This document shows, one piece after another, positions 1 to 34,095 of a DNA stretch of 64,000 nucleotides (position 1 is the stretch's first letter; each line of letters starts with the position of its first letter). Source of the DNA: Pseudomonadota bacterium (GTDB lineage Bacteria; Pseudomonadota; Gammaproteobacteria; Burkholderiales; Gallionellaceae); NCBI GenBank assembly GCA_049321355.1, contig JBMOPZ010000040.1, forward strand, positions 59,410-123,409, written 5' to 3'. The position numbers were made by a program, and so were the translations under genes. The notes below the pieces were generated by a model. The model was not told the origin of the DNA, made no database searches, and worked only from the letters and a program-made list of their open reading frames with translations.

Positions 1-27
1 AAAACGCTACAGCCATATCGAGAAAAC

Positions 28-64
28 CATCCGGCGCAATGCGCTACGCTTATTGACACCCTAC
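28..64. repeat. REP-like palindromic repeat (GTAGGG..CAATAA..GCATTGCGCCG family)
   Basis: Reverse complement GTAGGGTGTCAATAAGCGTAGCGCATTGCGCCGGATG resembles the copy at 40276-40312 (GCAGGGCGCAATAACCAACTGGCATTGCGCCGGATG). Confidence 0.6.
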
Positions 65-77
65 CGAATACGCCTTG

Positions 78-102
78 CCCCGCTTGAGCGTAAGGTTAGG
101 CA
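78..102 (-). mobile_element. Left half of an attC-like site after hicB
   Basis: Minus strand reads TGCCTAAC-CTTACGCTCAAGCGGGG. The hicB stop TAA lies inside the inverse core GCCTAAC. No right half is visible before the REP repeat. Confidence 0.6.
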
Positions 103-308
103 GCGATTTCGAGGTACTCAACAATGCTTGCCGGTTGCGGGATGGGCAACCCGTCTTCGATAAGCCCCTCGATATGAAATTCGATGGCCTCACGAATCTC
201 GCGCTCCGTTTCTTCAAGGGTAAATCCTGTGGCGACGCAACCGGGCAAGTCCGGCACGTAAGCAGAGAAATTGTTTTTTGTTTTTTCGACAACGATAGCG
301 TAGCGCAT
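96..308 (-). CDS. hicB: HicB-family antitoxin (short form)
   Basis: 70 aa, MRYAIVVEK..FSAYVPDLPGCVATG.TLEE motif typical of HicB; directly downstream of a hicA-like frame. Confidence 0.9.
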   Translation of the reverse strand: MRYAIVVEKTKNNFSAYVPDLPGCVATGFTLEETEREIREAIEFHIEGLIEDGLPIPQPASIVEYLEIAA

Positions 309-311
309 ATG

Positions 312-500
312 CTAGTCCTTTAATTGTGCCTGTTTAAGTATGCTGTTCAACGTGCCGGGCGCTAAATCATCGCTTGGTTTTCCGGGTACGGTGACACGAC
401 CTCTCTTGACGGGATGCTTGAATTACCGATGGCTACCTCGCGTTGCGGCGAGATACCAACCCTCCGCTTTTAGCATGAGCAAGATTTCATTTACTTTCAT
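312..500 (-). pseudogene. hicA: HicA-family toxin with in-frame nonsense codon
   Basis: Manual translation: MKVNEILLMLKAEGWYLAATRGSHR*FKHPVKRGRVTVPGKPSDDLAPGTLNSILKQAQLKD*. TAA at 423-425 falls where GSHRQFKHP normally has Gln. Confidence 0.85.
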
Positions 501-540
501 GCGGCAAGGATAGCAGATTGCCCCCCAGTGCTGCCGAGCT

Positions 541-565
541 TGCCTAACGTTTGAGTTGGCCGTCA
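541..565 (-). mobile_element. Right half of an attC-like site (core GTTAGGC) starting the hicAB cassette
   Basis: Minus strand TGACGGCCAACTCAAAC-GTTAGGCA. GTTAGGCA is the exact complement of TGCCTAAC at the hicB end (95-102). Confidence 0.6.
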
Positions 566-1143
566 TTTGCGAGGATCTCTGATACTCGCGCTCGAATAGT
601 TGGAATGAGCTCGTCTTCAAACCATGGGTTGCGTTTGAGCCAAAAATTATTGCGTGGGCTTGGATGGGGCAAGGGGACAGTATTTGGCCAATACTTTCGC
701 CATGCCTGAACTGTCTCGGTGACTGATGCAGCTTCGCCCGGAAGGTGGTAAGCCTGCGCGTACTGCCCGATGACAAGCGTAAGCTCGAGAGCCTTCAAGC
801 GCGATAGTAACGCTGCACGCCATGCTGAAGCGCATTCGGATCGCGGAGGTAGATCTCCAGACTTACCCGTTCCCGGAAAACAGAACCCCATTGGAAGGAT
901 GGCAACTTGCTTGGCATCGTAGAAAACTTCGCGGGAAATGCCCAACCATTCGCGCAGCCTGTCCCCACTAGCATCATTGAAGGGCACGCCCGTTTCGTGA
1001 ACCTTTCTGCCAGGTGCTTGACCCGCGATCAAGATACGAGCCGACGGGTGCAGTTGCACGATTGGGCGCGGCCCTAGCGGCAGATGTTCAGTGCAAAGCT
1101 TGCAGGCACGAACTTCAGTAAGCAATGCGGCGAAAGAAGACAT
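544..1143 (-). CDS. Uracil-DNA glycosylase superfamily protein
   Basis: 199 aa; N-terminal CxxC, GQAPG motif, MGFCFPG..DLPPR.EC and C-terminal LPHPSPRN motif. Confidence 0.85.
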   Translation of the reverse strand: MSSFAALLTEVRACKLCTEHLPLGPRPIVQLHPSARILIAGQAPGRKVHETGVPFNDASGDRLREWLGISREVFYDAKQVAILPMGFCFPGTGKSGDLPPRSECASAWRAALLSRLKALELTLVIGQYAQAYHLPGEAASVTETVQAWRKYWPNTVPLPHPSPRNNFWLKRNPWFEDELIPTIRARVSEILANDGQLKR

Positions 1144-1149
1144 TCGGGG

Positions 1150-1187
1150 CGCTTTTTGCTGTCCGAGTGCATGTGATTGTTAGCTGC
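1150..1187 (-). mobile_element. Left half of an attC-like site after the TIR gene
   Basis: Minus strand GCAGCTAAC-AATCACATGCACTCGGACAGCAAAAAGCG; the TIR stop lies inside the inverse core; truncated just before the UDG start codon. Confidence 0.65.
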
Positions 1188-2244
1188 CGTTCTCTTGCTC
1201 TTCGTCCGACGAATTACTAGGAGTTTCTTTCAATTTTGAATAACGGTGCAGGTAATGCTCGATCACCATAGGGAACTCTCGCATCATCATGTATTTTTCT
1301 TTCGATATAAAGCTGAATTCCTTTATAAACGGGCCATGAAAGGTCATCTCTGATGCATCTCGAAAGATGCGAAGCGCTTCCTTCAATTCAATACCACTAC
1401 CCGATTTTGCGGCTCGATATGCGTCTAGACCAAGCTCGTAAAGCCAAGGGAAGTCATCTTTAACCAAACTTGCAATAAACAATATTCCAATCGGGTCGTC
1501 GGAACGTTTAGAAACCATATGCACCATTTCATCAATCATCATCGGATGAAATTTTCTAAATGGTCTTTTTCTATACCGTTCGGGTTCTTCGATTACTCTA
1601 CGTTCAATGCGGTCTGGAAGATCCCTAACCATCAATTTCATTTCTTCCAGCAACTTTGCAACAGCGCCCTCATCCGTTGACGACTGTTCTTTTGCCGAGG
1701 TTGGCTCTTTTAGTTGATTGAGGACCTCGTTCGCCGTTTCCTTAAAAGTCTGAACCTGAGTTTTTACAACGTCTTCGTCAGGTTCAAGAGAAGGAATACG
1801 CTCACATAATTGCATTACCAGCTTGGTAAGGGAATCCTCGCTGTCATCACTGTTTTGGAATTGATAGAAAGGCCCCGTTCCGACACGATTAAGAGAAACA
1901 CCAAGCGCAATACCATGAACTGGGGTTTCCAACTTCCCTTTTGCAACGCCAGCTTCGTATAGAATCCAAGGACGATCTACACTTCTTTCTGTCAAAAGAC
2001 ACACCACATCGGACGCGCTATCCAGTTTTGTCATTAGCCTCTTATACCAATCGTCGCCGAATTGAATTCCCTCAGTTCCCTTCTTATCTGAGGAGCGAAA
2101 CGATTTGAGCATTCCGGCGCTCACGCTTTTTAGCAGCTTACTGAACGCTTCTGCCAACCCCGCATCTCGGCTGTCATGGCTAATAAATATCAACGGCTTA
2201 TCTATTGACTTGGTTGTCTTCGATGCGCTCTCTTCGTCTGTCAT
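1180..2244 (-). CDS. TIR-domain protein with uncharacterised C-terminal helical domain
   Basis: N-terminal IFISHDSRD...VVCLLTERSVDRPWILYEAGVA matches bacterial TIR domains including the catalytic Glu; visibly AT-richer than neighbours. Confidence 0.85.
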   Translation of the reverse strand: MTDEESASKTTKSIDKPLIFISHDSRDAGLAEAFSKLLKSVSAGMLKSFRSSDKKGTEGIQFGDDWYKRLMTKLDSASDVVCLLTERSVDRPWILYEAGVAKGKLETPVHGIALGVSLNRVGTGPFYQFQNSDDSEDSLTKLVMQLCERIPSLEPDEDVVKTQVQTFKETANEVLNQLKEPTSAKEQSSTDEGAVAKLLEEMKLMVRDLPDRIERRVIEEPERYRKRPFRKFHPMMIDEMVHMVSKRSDDPIGILFIASLVKDDFPWLYELGLDAYRAAKSGSGIELKEALRIFRDASEMTFHGPFIKEFSFISKEKYMMMREFPMVIEHYLHRYSKLKETPSNSSDEEQENGS

Positions 2245-2276
2245 GATTTTTGTTTCTCCTTCCTGTGTATTTTTGA

Positions 2277-2340
2277 GCAGCTAACTTAAAGTAGACGGAA
2301 AAAATGCCGTATATCCTGAGACCACCTGCCATATATCCTG
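2277..2340 (-). mobile_element. attI-like leader: core site plus two 14-bp direct repeats
   Basis: Core GTTAGCTGC (minus, 2277-2285) complements the inverse core at 1179-1187. Plus-strand repeats TGCCGTATATCCTG (2305-2318) and TGCCATATATCCTG (2327-2340). Confidence 0.45.
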
Positions 2341-2457
2341 CTTAACCACATTTACCCCTTTGATTCTAAAATACTTAAACACGCTAACATGGCGAGTGAT
2401 TCCGTGAAAAGCGGCATGTCCTCCCATAACTCCCCGGCAAGGATACCCGAACCGCAT

Positions 2458-3246
2458 TCATGCCGTAAGCCTGCGCCGCAACCAAAAGCTGATGCCATCA
2501 ACGGCGACGATCATCAACAGCATGGCGATAATCACGGTGGCGGCTTGTTGCATCTGAAACAGTGCGAGGTGGTATTTCAGCATTTGCCCGAGGCCGCCCG
2601 CGCCGACCACGCCGAGGATGGCGGCGGCGCGGATGTTGTTTTCCCAGCGGTAGAGTGTGTAGGACATGATCTGCGGCAGGGCTTGCGGCAAGGCGGCGTA
2701 GTAAAAAGCCGCCAGCGGTTTCACGCCGTTGGTGCGCAGGGTCGTCTCCGCTGCGGGGGGCAGGTTTTCCAGGGTGTCGGCGAACAGCCTCCCCAGCACG
2801 CCGGTGGTGTGTACCGCCAATGCCAGCGTGCCGGTGAACGGCCCCAGTCCGGCGGCGATCAGCAGTATCACCGCCCAGACCAGTTCCGGGACCGAGCGCA
2901 GGGCGTTCAGCAACAGGCGCGTCGGCAGCCGCGCTGTCGCGCCGAACCGTCCGCCCGCCACCGGTGCCAGCGCGAGGCCGAAAATCAGGGCGAGCAGCGT
3001 GCCGATTGCCGACATGGCGAATGTTTCGACCGCACCGTCGGCAACTTTCACGATGAAGTCCCACGCCAAATCGGGCGGCGCAAAGCCGCGCAAGAATTCC
3101 GCCGCAGTGCCGATTGCCGTGGGGGTAAACAGGGTGTGCCAGTCCAGGGGCAGCGAGTAGAAGCTGGCGCACACCAGCAACAGCAAGCCTAGCAGGAGCG
3201 CGATTGTGGTCGGGGTGGGCGGGTTGGGTGGGCGGTAGGAATGCAC
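2458..3246 (-). CDS. PhnE/PtxC-family ABC transporter permease
   Basis: LRSVPELVWA, GxLGRLFADTLE, YRWENNIR..ILG.VGAGGLG motifs. GTG start at 3246 chosen (ORF track starts at 3294). Confidence 0.85.
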   Translation of the reverse strand: MHSYRPPNPPTPTTIALLLGLLLLVCASFYSLPLDWHTLFTPTAIGTAAEFLRGFAPPDLAWDFIVKVADGAVETFAMSAIGTLLALIFGLALAPVAGGRFGATARLPTRLLLNALRSVPELVWAVILLIAAGLGPFTGTLALAVHTTGVLGRLFADTLENLPPAAETTLRTNGVKPLAAFYYAALPQALPQIMSYTLYRWENNIRAAAILGVVGAGGLGQMLKYHLALFQMQQAATVIIAMLLMIVAVDGISFWLRRRLTA

Positions 3247-3250
3247 GGCG

Positions 3251-4084
3251 TTATCCCAATCGCTTGCGCAGCAGGCCGCTGAGCGCGTCGGCACACGCCA
3301 CCAGCAGCATTAAAACAATCAGCAGGGTCGCCACTTCGCCCCCGGCCAACATTTTCATCGACTGGTCGAGCTGTTGCCCCAGGCCGCCCGCGCCGACGAA
3401 GCCCATGATGACCGAGCCGCGAACCGCGCATTCCCAGCGGTAACAGGTGTATGACACCAGTTCGGCGGCGCAGGTTGGCAGCACCGCATACAGCAGGGTG
3501 TTGAGGCGACTGCTGCCGTTTTGTAACAGCGATGTGCTGACGCTGGCTTCCGCCGATTCGAGTATCTCGGCATAGGCCTTGCCCAACATGCCGCAGTAGG
3601 TGAGGACGATAGCCAATACGCCGGCGGTGGGCCCCAAGCCGACGATGCGCACGAACAATAATGCCCAGACCAGCTCGGGAACGCTGCGTAATACCACCAG
3701 CAGCCAGCGCACGGCTTGTCGCAGTAACGCGCCCGGCAGGCGCATCCGTCCGGTTTCCATGCGCGATAGGGATAGGGAGGCGGTCGCCAATAGCGTGAGC
3801 GGAATCGCGCCCAGCAATGCCAGCACCAGCCCGACAGTGGCGATGGCGACGGTTTGCCAGGTCGCGTGCAGTGTCAGTTGCAAAAATTCAGCGGAGTATT
3901 CCGGCGGCACGAAGTCCGCCAGAAAGCTGCCCGTTGCGCGCAGGCTTTGTCCGTCCAGCAATATCCACGGCTGAAACTCGCAAGCCAGCAGCAGCGGCCA
4001 CAGCAGCACCAGCGCGATCACCGATAGCGTCAGGCGACCCTGCCACGCGGGGTCGCGGTGATGGTTGCGGTTGGCGGGACTCAT
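3251..4084 (-). CDS. PhnE/PtxC-family ABC transporter permease
   Basis: LRSVPELVWALLFVRIVGLGP and YRWECAVRGS.IMGFVGAGGLG motifs. Confidence 0.88.
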   Translation of the reverse strand: MSPANRNHHRDPAWQGRLTLSVIALVLLWPLLLACEFQPWILLDGQSLRATGSFLADFVPPEYSAEFLQLTLHATWQTVAIATVGLVLALLGAIPLTLLATASLSLSRMETGRMRLPGALLRQAVRWLLVVLRSVPELVWALLFVRIVGLGPTAGVLAIVLTYCGMLGKAYAEILESAEASVSTSLLQNGSSRLNTLLYAVLPTCAAELVSYTCYRWECAVRGSVIMGFVGAGGLGQQLDQSMKMLAGGEVATLLIVLMLLVACADALSGLLRKRLG

Positions 4085-4174
4085 GGAAAGGGCGTTCCCT
4101 TATCTACACCAAAATCCCGGTGGCGCGGGGAATGTCCCGCTCTCGTATTGGGAGAAGAACACGCGACGCGCATC

Positions 4175-4993
4175 TCAGCAAATCACCCCGTTGCTCACGG
4201 TCGCAAGGGACGCTGCGCCTTCGTCCAGTGCACGATGCGCGGCATTGCGGTAGAGCGCGTCTATCATCGCATCCGTCACTTCGGCGCTGGCGGCATCGAA
4301 TACCACGCGACCTTCACGCAGCCCGATTAGGCGCGGGAAGCGGCTGCGCGCCAGCTCCACTTGATGCAGGCTGCATACCAGCGTTGCCTTGCGTGCATGC
4401 GCCTCTTGTTGCAGCACTGCCAGGGTGCCAAAAGACAGGGTGGGATCCAGGCCGGAAAGCGGCTCGTCCACCAGCAGGATTTTCGCACCCGACACCAGCA
4501 GGCGCGCCAGGCCGCAGCGTTGCCGCTCGCCACCGGACAAGCGGTCAACCCGCGCATACAGTTTGTCTTGCAGATGAAATTTTGCCAGTGCCCGATAAGC
4601 GGTCTCGGCATCGCGCGGATAAATCAAGGAACTGACGGCCTGCCAGAAACTCCACTGCGGCAATCGCCCGGCGAGTACCGCCGACACCACCCGTTGGCGC
4701 GGCGGTAGCGGCGGGGTTTGCGGCGCGAGAAACAGCCGTGCGCGCAGCGCGTGACGCTCGCCGTGACTGAGCGACCACGGCGCGACACCGCACAGCGAAA
4801 GCTCCCCCGAAACCGGCGGATGCGTGCAGGCCATGGTGTGCAGCAAAGTGGTTTTGCCCGCACCCGACGGTCCGATCAGCGCGACCTGCTCGCCCGCAGC
4901 GATGTTCAGATTGATGCCGCTCAGCGCGCGCACCCCGGCCTGGCGTGAAGCCGCCGGGTAATGCACGCACACGTCACGGAGCAACAGCGGCAT
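4175..4993 (-). CDS. PhnC-like ABC transporter ATPase
   Basis: Walker A GPSGAGKT, signature LSGGERQR, Walker B LLVDEP. Confidence 0.9.
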   Translation of the reverse strand: MPLLLRDVCVHYPAASRQAGVRALSGINLNIAAGEQVALIGPSGAGKTTLLHTMACTHPPVSGELSLCGVAPWSLSHGERHALRARLFLAPQTPPLPPRQRVVSAVLAGRLPQWSFWQAVSSLIYPRDAETAYRALAKFHLQDKLYARVDRLSGGERQRCGLARLLVSGAKILLVDEPLSGLDPTLSFGTLAVLQQEAHARKATLVCSLHQVELARSRFPRLIGLREGRVVFDAASAEVTDAMIDALYRNAAHRALDEGAASLATVSNGVIC

Positions 4994-5868
4994 TACTTCA
5001 ACAGTCCCGCGCTACGTGCAGCCTGTTCGATTGCGTCGTAATTTTCCACTTTGGTGGGAATGAAACGGGTGGCGCGTTGCAGTTCGAGGATTGCCCTGTC
5101 ATGCAGATTGTCGCGATCAAGCGCGAGGAATGCCTCTGTCAACTTTTGGCGCAGTGCCGCATCCATATCGGTGCGCACTGCCCAGTTGTAATCGTAATAC
5201 CCCGGCGTGGTGTAAAAAACACCCACGACTTGCTCGTTCACCTTGCCTTGCGCCAACAACTTTTGCCATACCGAGATGTTCAGCGCGCCCGCGTCCACCT
5301 TGCCACCCGCCACCGCCGCAACAGTCGCGTCATGCGCCCCGGAAAAGGCAATACGCTTCATGTCCGCCTCGGGGTTGACACCCGCCGCAAGCAAATACGA
5401 GCGCGGCATCAGATGCCCCGAAGTGGAAGACTCCGAGCCAAAACTGAAAGTCTTGCCCTTCAAATCGCCCAGACTGGCAATGTCATTGCGCGTGGTAATG
5501 AAAACCGACTTGAATTTTTCATCCTCCTCGCGCTGCACCAGCGGAATCACCTGATTGTGGCTGCGCACTTTGGCCTGCACAAAAGTGAAGCCGCCAAACC
5601 AGACCATATCCAGTTTATTGTTGACCAGACTTTCCACCGCGGCGGCGTAATCGCTCACCGGCGTGAATTCGACCTTCATGCCGATTTTCTTCTCCAGATA
5701 CTCCCCCAGCGGCGTGAATTTACGCTGCAACTCGGTCGGAGCCTCATCCGGTATGGCCGACACGCGCAATACCGGTTGCGCCGACGACATGCCTGCGGAA
5801 AGCGTCAATATTGCTGTCACGATAAAACTGAAAATAGATTTCCCTGCTGCTGAAAACGCGTAATTCAA
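4993..5868 (-). CDS. PhnD-like substrate-binding protein (putative selenate ABC transporter type)
   Basis: Signal peptide, SAIPDEAPTELQRKF, DYAAAVE, WFGGFT, STSGHLMPR; TAATG coupling to the ATPase gene. Confidence 0.8.
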   Translation of the reverse strand: MNYAFSAAGKSIFSFIVTAILTLSAGMSSAQPVLRVSAIPDEAPTELQRKFTPLGEYLEKKIGMKVEFTPVSDYAAAVESLVNNKLDMVWFGGFTFVQAKVRSHNQVIPLVQREEDEKFKSVFITTRNDIASLGDLKGKTFSFGSESSTSGHLMPRSYLLAAGVNPEADMKRIAFSGAHDATVAAVAGGKVDAGALNISVWQKLLAQGKVNEQVVGVFYTTPGYYDYNWAVRTDMDAALRQKLTEAFLALDRDNLHDRAILELQRATRFIPTKVENYDAIEQAARSAGLLK

Positions 5869-6078
5869 GATGAATGCTCCATGCGGGTTGAAAAGGGCGA
5901 GAAGTATAAATTAGGCGGCTACCAATAGGCGGCACAAATCACATCGCTGCATGGTCGATTTGGTTTTGCGCCCCCGAGTTTTTCCGGGATGATGGTGTCG
6001 CCGAATCTGGTCTAATTTGTTTTTTTGGTTGCCTTATAATGCCGCGCTATCCCTGCCCCGGTAGAAATATCCGCCCAC

Positions 6079-7950
6079 ATGAGCCGCGAATCTTCGCAAC
6101 AAAAATTGCCCGCACTGGCCCTGGGTGCGCTGGGCGTGGTATATGGCGACATTGGCACCAGTCCGCTGTATGCCCTCAAAGAAACTTTTGCCGGACATCA
6201 CCCGCTTGCCGTCGTCGAGGGGAATATTCTGGGGGTGCTGTCCATCATGTTCTGGACCATCATGTTGCTGGTGTCGCTCAAGTACGTCGCGATCATCATG
6301 CGCGCCGATAACCACGGCGAAGGGGGTTCACTCTCTCTGCTGGCACTGGTCGGTGATCTGACGGCAGAATCCCCCAAAACCAAATGGTTCATCACCGCCC
6401 TCGGCATTTTTGCCGCCGCACTGTTCTACGGCGACAGCATGATTACCCCCGCCATTTCGGTACTGTCGGCTGTCGAGGGGCTGAAAGTGGTTTCGCCGCA
6501 ACTGAGCCACTACGTCATTCCACTCACCATTGTCATTCTGACCGGATTATTTTTTATCCAGAAGCACGGTACCGGCAAAGTGGGTATGGCTTTCGGCCCT
6601 ATTATGATTTTCTGGTTTGGCTGCCTTGCGGTTCTCGGGCTGATTTCCATTGCACAAAGCCCGCACGTACTCTTGGCACTCAATCCGGTTCATGCCTATC
6701 GCTTCCTGACTGCGGAACCGTGGATGGCATTTCTGTCTCTCGGCACGATCGTGCTCGCCGTAACTGGCGGTGAGGCGTTATATACAGACATGGGGCACTT
6801 CGGAAAATTTCCGATTAGGGTAACGTGGTTTTCATTCGTGTTGCCCGCTCTGGTGCTCAACTACTTCGGGCAAGGCGCGCTGTTATTACAGGATGCGCAC
6901 GCCATCGAGAATCCGTTCTACCTGCTCGCGCCGGTCTGGGCGTTGCTTCCCATGATTCTATTGGCTACAGCGGCAACCATTATCGCCTCGCAAGCCGTGA
7001 TCTCCGGTGCTTTCTCGGTCGCCAATCAGTCTGTGCAAATGGGGCTGCTGCCGCGTATGGAAATTCGCCAGACTTCGGATAAAGCCCAAGGGCAGATTTA
7101 CGTGCCCTTCACCAACTGGACACTTTATCTAGCCGTGCTATTTTTGGTTCTCACCTTCCAAAGTTCCAGCAACCTGGCCGCCGCATATGGTATTGCCGTC
7201 ACCGGCACGATGACGATCGACACGCTGCTGATCGCTTTTGTCATCCTGATGGCCTGGCGCTGGCCGATGCCGCTCGCAATCCCGTTGATTGCAATCATTC
7301 TGATTGCCGACCTCGCCTATTTCGCCGCCAACGCACTGAAGATACCCCAAGGCGGCTGGTTTCCACTGGGTATCGCGGCGATCTCTTTCACTGTTCTCAC
7401 CACCTGGAAACGGGGGCGAAAATTATTATTTACCGAGATTGAGCGCCGCAATATCCCGATGCAGGTCATTATTGACGGCACCGATGACGTATCCAGAGTG
7501 CAGGGTACGGCAGTGTTCCTCACCAGTGCGAGCCATGGCGCACCGTCGGCCATGATGCACAATCTTAAACACAACCAGGTGCTGCACGAGCGCAACATAT
7601 TACTGACCGTGCGAATCGAAGATCGTCCCTATGTCACGGAAGACGAACGTCTCGTCATCAAGGATTTGAAAAAAGGCTTCTTCAGGGTGATCGTCAATTA
7701 CGGCTTTATGGAAATTCCCGACATTCCAGCCGCACTGACACTATGTGACGCCAGGGGGTTGCCCTTCGATATGATGTCCACGTCGTTCTTCATTTCGCGC
7801 GCCATGATTGTTTCCAGTCCGACCCCCGGCATGACAAAATGGCGCGAACGATTATTCCTTGCCTTGTCCAAAAACGCGATGAATGCGGCCGACTTCTTCA
7901 AAATCCCGGTCAACCGCGTGATTGAAATGGGTACGCGAATCGAGATTTGA
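6079..7950 (+). CDS. kup: KUP/HAK/KT potassium transporter
   Basis: [15 protein letters not shown] signature; 623 aa polytopic membrane protein. Confidence 0.95.
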
Positions 7951-34019: not shown

Positions 34020-34095
34020 GGGTCGTTAGCTCAGCCGGTAGAGCAGCGGACTTTTAATCCGTTGGTCGCGTGTTCGAATCACGCACGACCCACCA
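34020..34095 (+). tRNA. tRNA-Lys (anticodon TTT)
   Basis: GGGTCGT acceptor arm pairs with ACGACCC, anticodon loop CTTTTAA, T-loop GTTCGAAT, encoded CCA; 76 nt. Confidence 0.97.

Follow-up and report, generated by a model that had tools for sequence, protein, structure and literature searches.

Were three small gene units, set among housekeeping genes in a bacterial chromosome, once the cassettes of an integron? The question is raised by positions 78-2340 of the window, the whole 64-kb stretch of DNA analysed here, to which all coordinates refer. The units all lie on the minus strand: a gene for a TIR-domain protein, a gene of the uracil-DNA glycosylase (UDG) superfamily, and a hicAB toxin-antitoxin (TA) pair. 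A first-pass annotation, made from the letters of the sequence, had read them as an integrase-less cassette array whose attC recombination sites had decayed. We conclude that the region is very probably the relic of a cassette array, lodged in the chromosome between the phnDCEE phosphonate transporter operon and a convergent DedA-like gene. The TIR, UDG-like and hicAB units would in all likelihood be former integron cassettes, eroded at their attC sites and immobilized, the fossil of what is elsewhere called a CALIN (a clustered set of attC sites that has no integron-integrase).

Core sites at the ends of the gene units

Each of the three units begins at or ends in 7-nucleotide (nt) integrase core sites (G|TTRRRY, or RYYYAAC with the stop codon inside). 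On the plus strand, GTTAGCTGC is found at 1179-1187 and GCAGCTAAC at 2277-2285, with GTTAGGCA at 95-102 and TGCCTAAC at 541-548. On the minus strand, which is the coding one, a core of the GTTRRRY type stands upstream of the unit and its complement stands at the stop: GTTAGCTGC lies 33 nt 5' of the TIR ATG, and its complement GCAGCTAAC holds the TIR stop, a TAA inside AGCTAAC; GTTAGGCA lies 41 nt 5' of the hicA ATG, and TGCCTAAC holds the hicB stop, a TAA inside GCCTAAC. The TIR and hicAB units both start with TTRRRY after a G|TT crossover and end in a complementary R'' box, RYYYAAC. In the UDG unit, R'' has changed to GGCCAAC by mutation, and a deletion has taken the 5' end. The four short cores reported by the first-pass annotation are all where it placed them, with both stop codons inside the inverse cores, and its account of the gene set, gene ends and common orientation stands; its description has to be amended in that hicA is broken and that the UDG stop is a TAG within the hicAB core GTTAGGC.

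How often such ends arise by chance was measured on random pairs of 70 x 24 nt drawn from the window, scored for the inverted matches that they share. A match of at least 8 nt appears in 2.2% of trials and one of at least 9 nt in 0.64%, and 3/55 genes of the window reach at least 8 nt. Measured against chance, the complementary ends are thus unusual to a mild degree. The repeat pattern does not decide the matter by itself, and it is the comparative evidence that does.

Truncated attC sites and their full-length relatives

The array reading would be hard to hold if homologues of these genes never occurred in attC-flanked arrays. They do occur there (loci used for comparison carry L numbers): UDG in L139, L136, L152 and L154, TIR in L086, L087, L098, L104 and L135, and hicAB in L145. 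The sites in the window are truncated versions of the attC sites found in those places, in agreement with the first-pass view that every site survives as a half. That view is essentially right: the window has no hairpins, the left parts align significantly to full attC sites of relatives, and the UDG site keeps its outer boxes with 6 nt between them.

For TIR, relatives 63-93% identical begin at the same GTTAGCTGC, which lies about 33 nt 5' of the ATG in L086, L087, L095, L096 and L135, as it does in the window and in L001, a 121-kb metagenome contig on which the same sequence was found. Homology stops exactly at G|TTAGCTGC. Upstream of G|TT the sequence is unrelated in all six contexts (L001, L086, L087, L095, L096, L135), and the homology therefore ends at the integron crossover point. 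At the 3' end, the stop codon of relatives is in AGCTAAC (AGTTAAC in L104), followed by an imperfect palindrome ending in GTTAGxx or GTTATGC. A full attC hairpin follows the gene in L086, L087, L098 and L104 (folding z from -2.1 to -9.7), and pairing of R'' with R' closes the stem in L086 and L098. The contexts vary: in L086 the relative, 86% identical, is within a run of about ten co-oriented small open reading frames (ORFs); in L087 it is a lone gene, with uvrB on one side and a radical-SAM gene on the other, and the R' of its attC is GTCGAAT; in L135 the TIR cassette (93% identity) lies directly behind the attC of a different cassette.

What survives of the TIR attC in the window is GCAGCTAACAATCACATGCACTCGGACAGCAAAAAGCGCC (1187-1148); the right half and R' are gone, and the remnant meets the UDG unit about 8 nt short of the start codon. 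Aligned to the full attC of L086, this remnant scores 64, against 18.4 +/- 3.6 for shuffled sequences, with 0/300 reaching the score. Against the attC of the same type in L135 it scores 59, again reached by 0/300 shuffles. No hairpin is found 3' of the TIR gene in the window (z +0.79), nor any match there to an attC covariance model.

The cassette that precedes TIR in L135 (22-1185) encodes a protein of 387 amino acids (aa) whose sequence bears the signature of a trypsin-like serine protease (…GISGGGVF…). The attC sites on either side of this cassette are of the same family as the TIR attC half in the window, and the cassette may be another of defence type.

For UDG, a homologue 87% identical, which occurs on 121 contigs, makes up cassette 6 in the complete integron L139 (ENA ERZ27313556 k141_370092). 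Against TIGR02249, 'integron integrase' (cutoff 265), the divergent integrase of L139 reaches 482 bits. The attI of L139 ends in …CTACTTTAC|GTTAGCC, and each of its eight cassettes ends in RYCTAAC…stem…TTNAC|GTTRRRY. ParE/antitoxin and BrnT/BrnA-like pairs are among these cassettes, and the array is followed by acpS-pdxJ-recO-era-rnc. The UDG cassette of L139 reads GTTAGCCGTCAGGATCGCCTCGA-ATG … GAC GGC TAA C-(attC, 85 nt)-GTTGGCC. In the window, the leader before the ATG is reduced to CGCCCCGA; alignment of CGCCCCGAATGTCTTCT from the window with CGCCTCGAATGTCTTCT from L139 scores 30, against 13.4 +/- 2.8 for shuffles (0/300). A single deletion has taken the right half of the TIR attC, its R' and, from the UDG leader, about 19 nt; the joint probably formed through the CGCC microhomology. 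A resemblance of the 5' codons of UDG to the right half of an attC was set aside as chance, the same codons being conserved in UDG homologues elsewhere.

The other end of the UDG unit is altered as well. Homologues 77-91% identical are mostly 195 aa long (194-195), and the window protein, at 199 aa, is four codons longer: the TAA within R'' has become CAA, and translation now stops at TAG (546-544) inside the hicAB core GTTAGGC. At this 3' end L139 reads GACGGCTAAC and the window reads GACGGCCAAC. The interior of the UDG attC, about 70 nt in L139, is lost in the window.

Shortened UDG sites also occur elsewhere. In L149, an islet made up of UDG and a helix-turn-helix (HTH) gene follows an opp operon, and the UDG site reads GGCTAAC-CCCCTCATGTTAAAC-GTTGAGG (6582-6610), with 15 nt between the boxes. 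L152, where UDG is inside an array of twelve co-oriented ORFs, has AGCTAAC-ATGTTTAATTC-GTTCAGA at 4582-4606, with 11 nt between the boxes. Both contain CATGTT(T)AA, a shared sequence suggesting that the two sites may descend from one collapsed ancestor. In L154 the UDG site is kept at about 75 nt, and in L136 UDG lies behind a model-detected attC that belongs to an FRG-domain cassette. The geometry of the short two-box sites presumably recalls the simple site of an attI. They may be products of a recurrent excision of the hairpin, which would leave a double-stranded, attI-like 'simple site' in the form R''-spacer-R' and so fuse neighbours into still-mobile units or fix useful cassettes in chromosomes, the widely dispersed TIR-helical protein being an example; we regard this as a rather unlikely explanation.

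For hicAB, the relative in L145, 90% related, starts at the same GTTAGGC, directly after the attC-like site of a ParE/antitoxin cassette. From GTTAGGC on, the leaders of the window and of L145 are homologous (score 71 against 18.8 +/- 3.4, 0/300). In L143, hicAB and an Imm-NTF2 gene lie between recX and alaS, with the hicB stop in GCTTAAC followed by …GTTAGGC. At the 3' end in the window, GCCTAAC-CTTAC-GCTCAAGCGGGGC resembles left halves of L139 sites such as GACTAAC-ACGGC-GCTCAAGCGAGCC. On a groundwater contig that shares this hicB end, the sequence goes on as GCTCAAACGGGGCTGCGCAAAAGCGCGCAG and the stem is intact. The window diverges right after GGGGC; the attC homology stops at about 77. No hairpin is found 3' of hicB in the window (z +0.12).

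Homologues of HicB number in the thousands; they are 83-94% identical and come from Nitrosomonadales, Nitrotoga and Gallionella, among others. With its stop read as Gln, hicA matches Pfam HicA_toxin at E 2.4e-21; as it stands, the pair is not a complete type II TA system, HicB being intact and hicA broken. The nonsense codon of the window (423-425, CAA to TAA) is at the same Gln codon as one in the independent L145 cassette (TAG; about 2620-2680), which has a second nonsense change, TGG to TAG. In L142, no hicA is called beside hicB. Orphaned HicB antitoxins seem to be common in this hicAB cassette family. Just upstream of the solo hicB of L142, which belongs to a Nitrosomonadales metagenome-assembled genome, is a ribonucleotide reductase large-subunit gene with an intein (826-4821; Intein_splicing, LAGLIDADG).

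Searches for attC sites used home-made covariance models, not those of IntegronFinder. Model R1, seeded with three sites of L139 and one of L104, recovered all other L139 sites and sites in L098, L104, L145 and L135. Model R2, built from 13 sites, additionally found sites in L136, L087 and L152. With filters off, the best and only match of R2 in the window is at 11-103 on the minus strand. It is sub-threshold, at 14.9 bits (E 0.24), and its start coincides exactly with CTGCCTAAC, the hicB stop; R2 finds nothing at the TIR and UDG junctions. We considered this match as a full-length degenerate hicAB attC and accepted its left part only, because its right half overlaps an unrelated 37-nt repeat. 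None of the window sites is a complete attC (R''-L''-variable-L'-R', a hairpin of about 57-141 nt), while homologues have complete ones. RNAalifold gave no consensus for nine heterogeneous attC sites, and the four-sequence seed worked. A home-made scanner combining core complementarity with folding energy was discarded: it missed known sites and was unspecific, returning 37 clusters in the window against about 16 in shuffles. Features of the array and its borders are collected in Table 1.

Table 1. Features of the cassette-derived region and its borders, in order along the coding strand
Feature	Position	Strand	Remarks
Phosphonate ABC transporter genes phnE, phnE, phnC, phnD	2458-5868	minus	
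Spacer, phnE stop to TIR cassette boundary	2286-2457	minus	172 nt; chromosomal target or unrecognisable attI as candidates
TIR cassette 5' boundary	2277-2285	minus	core GTTAGCTGC, R' type, GTTRRRY-like; crossover between G2285 and T2284
TIR-domain gene	1180-2244	minus	intact, 354 aa; Pfam TIR_2, E 1.2e-5
TIR attC, left 40 nt	1148-1187	minus	R'' AGCTAAC (1185-1179), L'' region, ascending stem up to GCAAAAAGCGCC
Deletion joint	1144-1151	minus	CGCC (1151-1148) common to attC loop start and UDG cassette leader
UDG-superfamily gene	544-1143	minus	intact, 199 aa; Pfam UDG, E 1.3e-25
UDG attC remnant fused to hicAB start	542-561	minus	GGCCAAC (561-555), TCAAAC (554-549), R' GTTAGGC (548-542)
hicAB cassette leader	501-547	minus	from TTAGGC right after crossover G548
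hicA toxin pseudogene	312-500	minus	otherwise full length; in-frame TAA at codon 26 (425-423)
hicB antitoxin gene	96-308	minus	intact, 70 aa; Pfam HicB_lk_antitox, E 7e-15
hicAB attC, left ~26 nt	77-102	minus	R'' GCCTAAC (101-95), CTTAC, L''-type GCTCAAGCGGGGC
37-nt repeat-like element	28-64	minus	GTAGGGTGTCAATAAGCGTAGCGCATTGCGCCGGATG; outside cassettes, marks distal junction between truncated hicAB attC and DedA-like gene

Taken together, the attC sites are destroyed in three ways. One deletion removed the right half of the TIR attC with the first ~19 nt of the UDG cassette; the UDG attC lost its whole interior and the stop codon; and the hicAB attC is cut about 26 nt in. Because no intact attC is present and no intI is nearby, the units appear to be fixed and would no longer be excised or shuffled, passing to descendants like any other genes of the chromosome. 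TIR, UDG and hicB remain intact and are presumably of use, and the hicA toxin has been disabled. The units may have been captured here and then eroded, or they may have been fused before arrival.

The TIR protein has an N-terminal TIR domain at about residues 18-150 and a conserved all-helical C-terminal domain of ~200 aa. It matches the PADLOC profiles TIR-TM, SpbK and ThsB (the last weakly, E 4e-4), and the TIR part of its AlphaFold model resembles SPARTA TIR, SpbK and ThsB; a structure search with the helical domain gave no match. Its 3460 detected homologues are full length and 58-88% identical; in an alignment of 42 members the mean column identity is 62% and Glu97 is invariant. The protein is most likely a stand-alone NAD-degrading effector of abortive infection or anti-phage defence. 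There is no ThsA-like gene in the neighbourhood to make a Thoeris system, and homologues occur singly, in varied contexts. The UDG protein belongs to its superfamily by PF03167 (90.5 bits, cutoff 24.3); its nearest solved structure is 3IKB, an uncharacterised protein (9e-50), with family-4 UDGs distant and family-4 models scoring far under cutoff.

Surroundings of the array and routes of arrival

Housekeeping genes flank the array on either side. Every gene in window positions 1-6000 is on the minus strand, and L001 continues past the left end of the window with the DedA-like gene, DUF4197, lpdA, an aldehyde dehydrogenase gene, trpC and further housekeeping genes. The host is an uncultured betaproteobacterium from samples of groundwater, the subsurface and biofilms; among GTDB species representatives, the relatives of its phnE, from Sideroxydans, Gallionella and Oxalobacteraceae, reach no more than 74% identity. 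The island is 100% identical across contigs of five samples. The G+C content of the TIR gene is 40-46% (about 43%), against ~55% for the host and the window. The sole Rfam match at gathering threshold in the window is one tRNA gene at 34020-34092, and G+C content is slightly lower (0.51) around 34-36 kb.

The 37-nt element at the distal border is present once in the window, where it abuts the truncated hicAB attC. In four groundwater runs it occurs in many short contigs with unlike flanks, at 500-1600x summed depth, where the host has 0-4x. Judged by its sequence, which starts with GTAG, it looks like a repetitive extragenic palindromic (REP/REPIN-type) repeat or the end of a miniature inverted-repeat transposable element (MITE). 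Two inverted copies lie 590 nt apart on one 1235-nt contig, and a 15-bp hairpin forms in some contexts. A perfect 12-nt inverted repeat, ATGCGCTACGCT / AGCGTAGCGCAT, occupies positions 39-50 and 297-308; chance would give ~0.2 such pairs in 2.6 kb. The first four codons of hicB make up one arm, and the second is in the 3' flank of hicB, inside the 37-nt element.

The absence of an integrase between the array and phnE, which the first-pass annotation had noted, extends further. A tblastn search with the L139 IntI found no intI in the 64-kb window (E <= 10) or in L001, including 9 kb beyond the window. By the definition of IntegronFinder, a CALIN consists of two or more attC sites no further than 4 kb apart, with no integron integrase nearby; the window agrees in lacking the integrase and differs in having no two such sites. 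Neither is it a complete integron, as there is no IntI, no significant likeness to attI in the upstream 172 nt, and no sigma-70-like promoter found upstream on the coding (minus) strand. Expression of the array may depend on read-through from phnE.

Several points weigh against the reading of the region as a former cassette array. Complementary ends of 8-9 nt are by themselves mildly unusual, events of about 1-2%, and not decisive. No attC site in the window reaches any detection threshold, so that by the IntegronFinder definitions the array is neither a CALIN nor a single attC site lacking an integron-integrase (SALIN). The 172-nt spacer, compared without the TTAGC core that they share, resembles no attC or attI significantly. 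No close relative without the island was found, and the empty site and the exact outer junctions are therefore not readable. The search for intI covered the window and L001, and the whole block might conceivably be open to mobilization in trans through a cryptic site.

As to how the units arrived, we lean towards insertion by an IntI acting in trans over decay of a resident integron. The integrase would have inserted a single cassette, or several genes already fused into one unit, at a place in the genome other than att (an attG or secondary site), and the insert would later have decayed; this is the somewhat likely route. Relatives of each unit occur as one- or two-gene islets among housekeeping genes, as in L087 (TIR), L143 (hicAB) and L149 (UDG and HTH), and the left junction in the window fits, with a clean break at G|TT and unique sequence upstream. 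Judging by the shortened attC sites of L149 and L152, UDG may have been joined to its downstream neighbour before arrival. Insertions at non-att sites have been shown by Loot et al. (bioRxiv 10.1101/2022.09.11.507474), who propose them as the origin of SALINs and small CALINs. Against this route, the truncated attC and the 37-nt repeat mask the distal junction, so that no G|WT target junction can be assigned with confidence. Nor was an empty site found, which under attG insertion would read …CTACTTTAAG|(A/T)T…: synteny with GTDB species representatives showed nothing in common beyond phnDCEE, and contigs from public runs laid on the locus came from the same strain alone, at low depth, with no joint skipping the island.

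Decay in place is the more doubtful route. An integron with intI and attI would have stood beside phnE with TIR as its first cassette, a deletion would have taken intI, and the spacer would be a remnant of attI or promoter. At 172 nt the spacer is near the length of the L139 intI-attI interval (150 nt), and its last 26 nt including GTTAGC resemble the end of the L139 attI, with a score of 26 against 16.7 +/- 2.2. This likeness vanishes when the shared TTAGC core is excluded, as 121/300 shuffles then reach the score, and the candidate attI remnant was rejected. The spacer also holds a 14-nt direct repeat, TGCCRTATATCCTG, at 2305-2318 (TGCCGTATATCCTG) and 2327-2340 (TGCCATATATCCTG), 20-55 nt upstream of the TIR boundary. 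We take its geometry to recall that of the direct repeats of attI; candidate roles are a protein-binding repeat of the attI type and a regulatory site of the chromosome. No IntI remnant is found by tblastn in the window at E <= 10, and a candidate for the IntI N-terminus at 2416-2457 ('IPEPH' vs 'IPHPH'), lacking tblastn support, was dropped. In a survey of CALINs, 95% had no recognisable intI pseudogene nearby (PMC4889954).

Apart from any integron, the three units might form one co-evolved, three-component defence operon with the repeats as regulatory sequence. The genes are co-oriented and tightly packed (gaps of 36 and 43 nt), and TIR proteins and TA pairs are both known in defence systems. 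The operon reading is very unlikely: the UDG protein has no PADLOC match, hicA is a pseudogene, and 0/63 other loci (47 TIR, 9 UDG, 7 hic) combine two of the three units, which are independent modules because of that lack of co-occurrence.

Least probable of all, to a degree that we regard as close to negligible, is that an ordinary islet was acquired through phage, transposon or homologous recombination and has complementary ends by chance: inverted 8-9-mers join gene ends in 0.6-2% of pairs, two other genes of the window have 8-mers, and no mobile-element genes or attC sites are detectable in the window, but the same ends recur in homologues with full attC sites and in an IntI-bearing integron, homology breaks exactly at G|TT, and the truncated sites align to full attC sites at scores that 0/300 shuffles reach.

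Relation to known systems

Integrase-less cassette clusters and their decay are already well documented (PMC4889954; bioRxiv 10.1101/2022.09.11.507474). Like the CALINs described in 2016 (PMC4889954), the array studied here has several co-oriented cassettes, no nearby intI, non-resistance content and a chromosomal location. A CALIN needs at least two detectable attC sites, whereas in the window one site is reduced to its left half, one to a stub without its interior, and one to a left quarter. The array would thus be a step further down the path of decay and would escape IntegronFinder. Compared with SALINs and attG insertions (bioRxiv 10.1101/2022.09.11.507474), it shares the placement of cassettes among housekeeping genes and the clean G|TT junction, and its cassettes have solo islets as relatives (L087, L143, L149); it differs in having three units rather than one, and in a truncated attC that leaves the attG junction unreadable.

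The sedentary chromosomal integron of betaproteobacteria, as represented by L139, has the same UDG cassette (87%) and several TA cassettes, and its attC sites belong to one family with the hicAB remnant (…CTAAC…CGCTCAAGCG…). It also has intI, attI and eight functional-looking attC sites, of which the window has none. TA systems are the most common recognisable content of cassettes in chromosomal integrons (bioRxiv 10.1101/2024.07.02.601686), and hicAB is likewise a two-gene cassette, here at the distal end of the array. It departs from such cassettes in that the hicA toxin is inactivated, in the window as in L145, leaving no addiction function. With single-gene TIR effectors (SpbK, ThsB of Thoeris, the SPARTA TIR) the TIR protein shares the fold and a catalytic-type Glu (E97, invariant in 42 homologues); it has no ThsA or Argonaute partner, and its helical C-terminal domain of ~200 aa has no structural match.

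At this locus the conversion of integron cargo into ordinary DNA of the chromosome can be followed in detail, with the 7-9-nt cores persisting while the attC hairpins are deleted. Since the hairpins were lost by deletion, tools based on attC would miss the origin of these genes, and surveys of CALINs and SALINs may undercount genes derived from cassettes. The comparison also flags as integron-borne a conserved and widely dispersed family with TIR and helical domains (3460 detected relatives, several phyla), a candidate compact anti-phage effector, and shows a UDG-like enzyme travelling as an integron cassette. If the short R''-spacer-R' sites did arise by excision of the hairpin, collapse of attC would be a regular route of domestication for integron cargo, producing a class of relics invisible to attC-based detection. 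Set beside the systems described to date, the array illustrates a known process, clearly but with nothing out of the ordinary, and it does not overturn current understanding.

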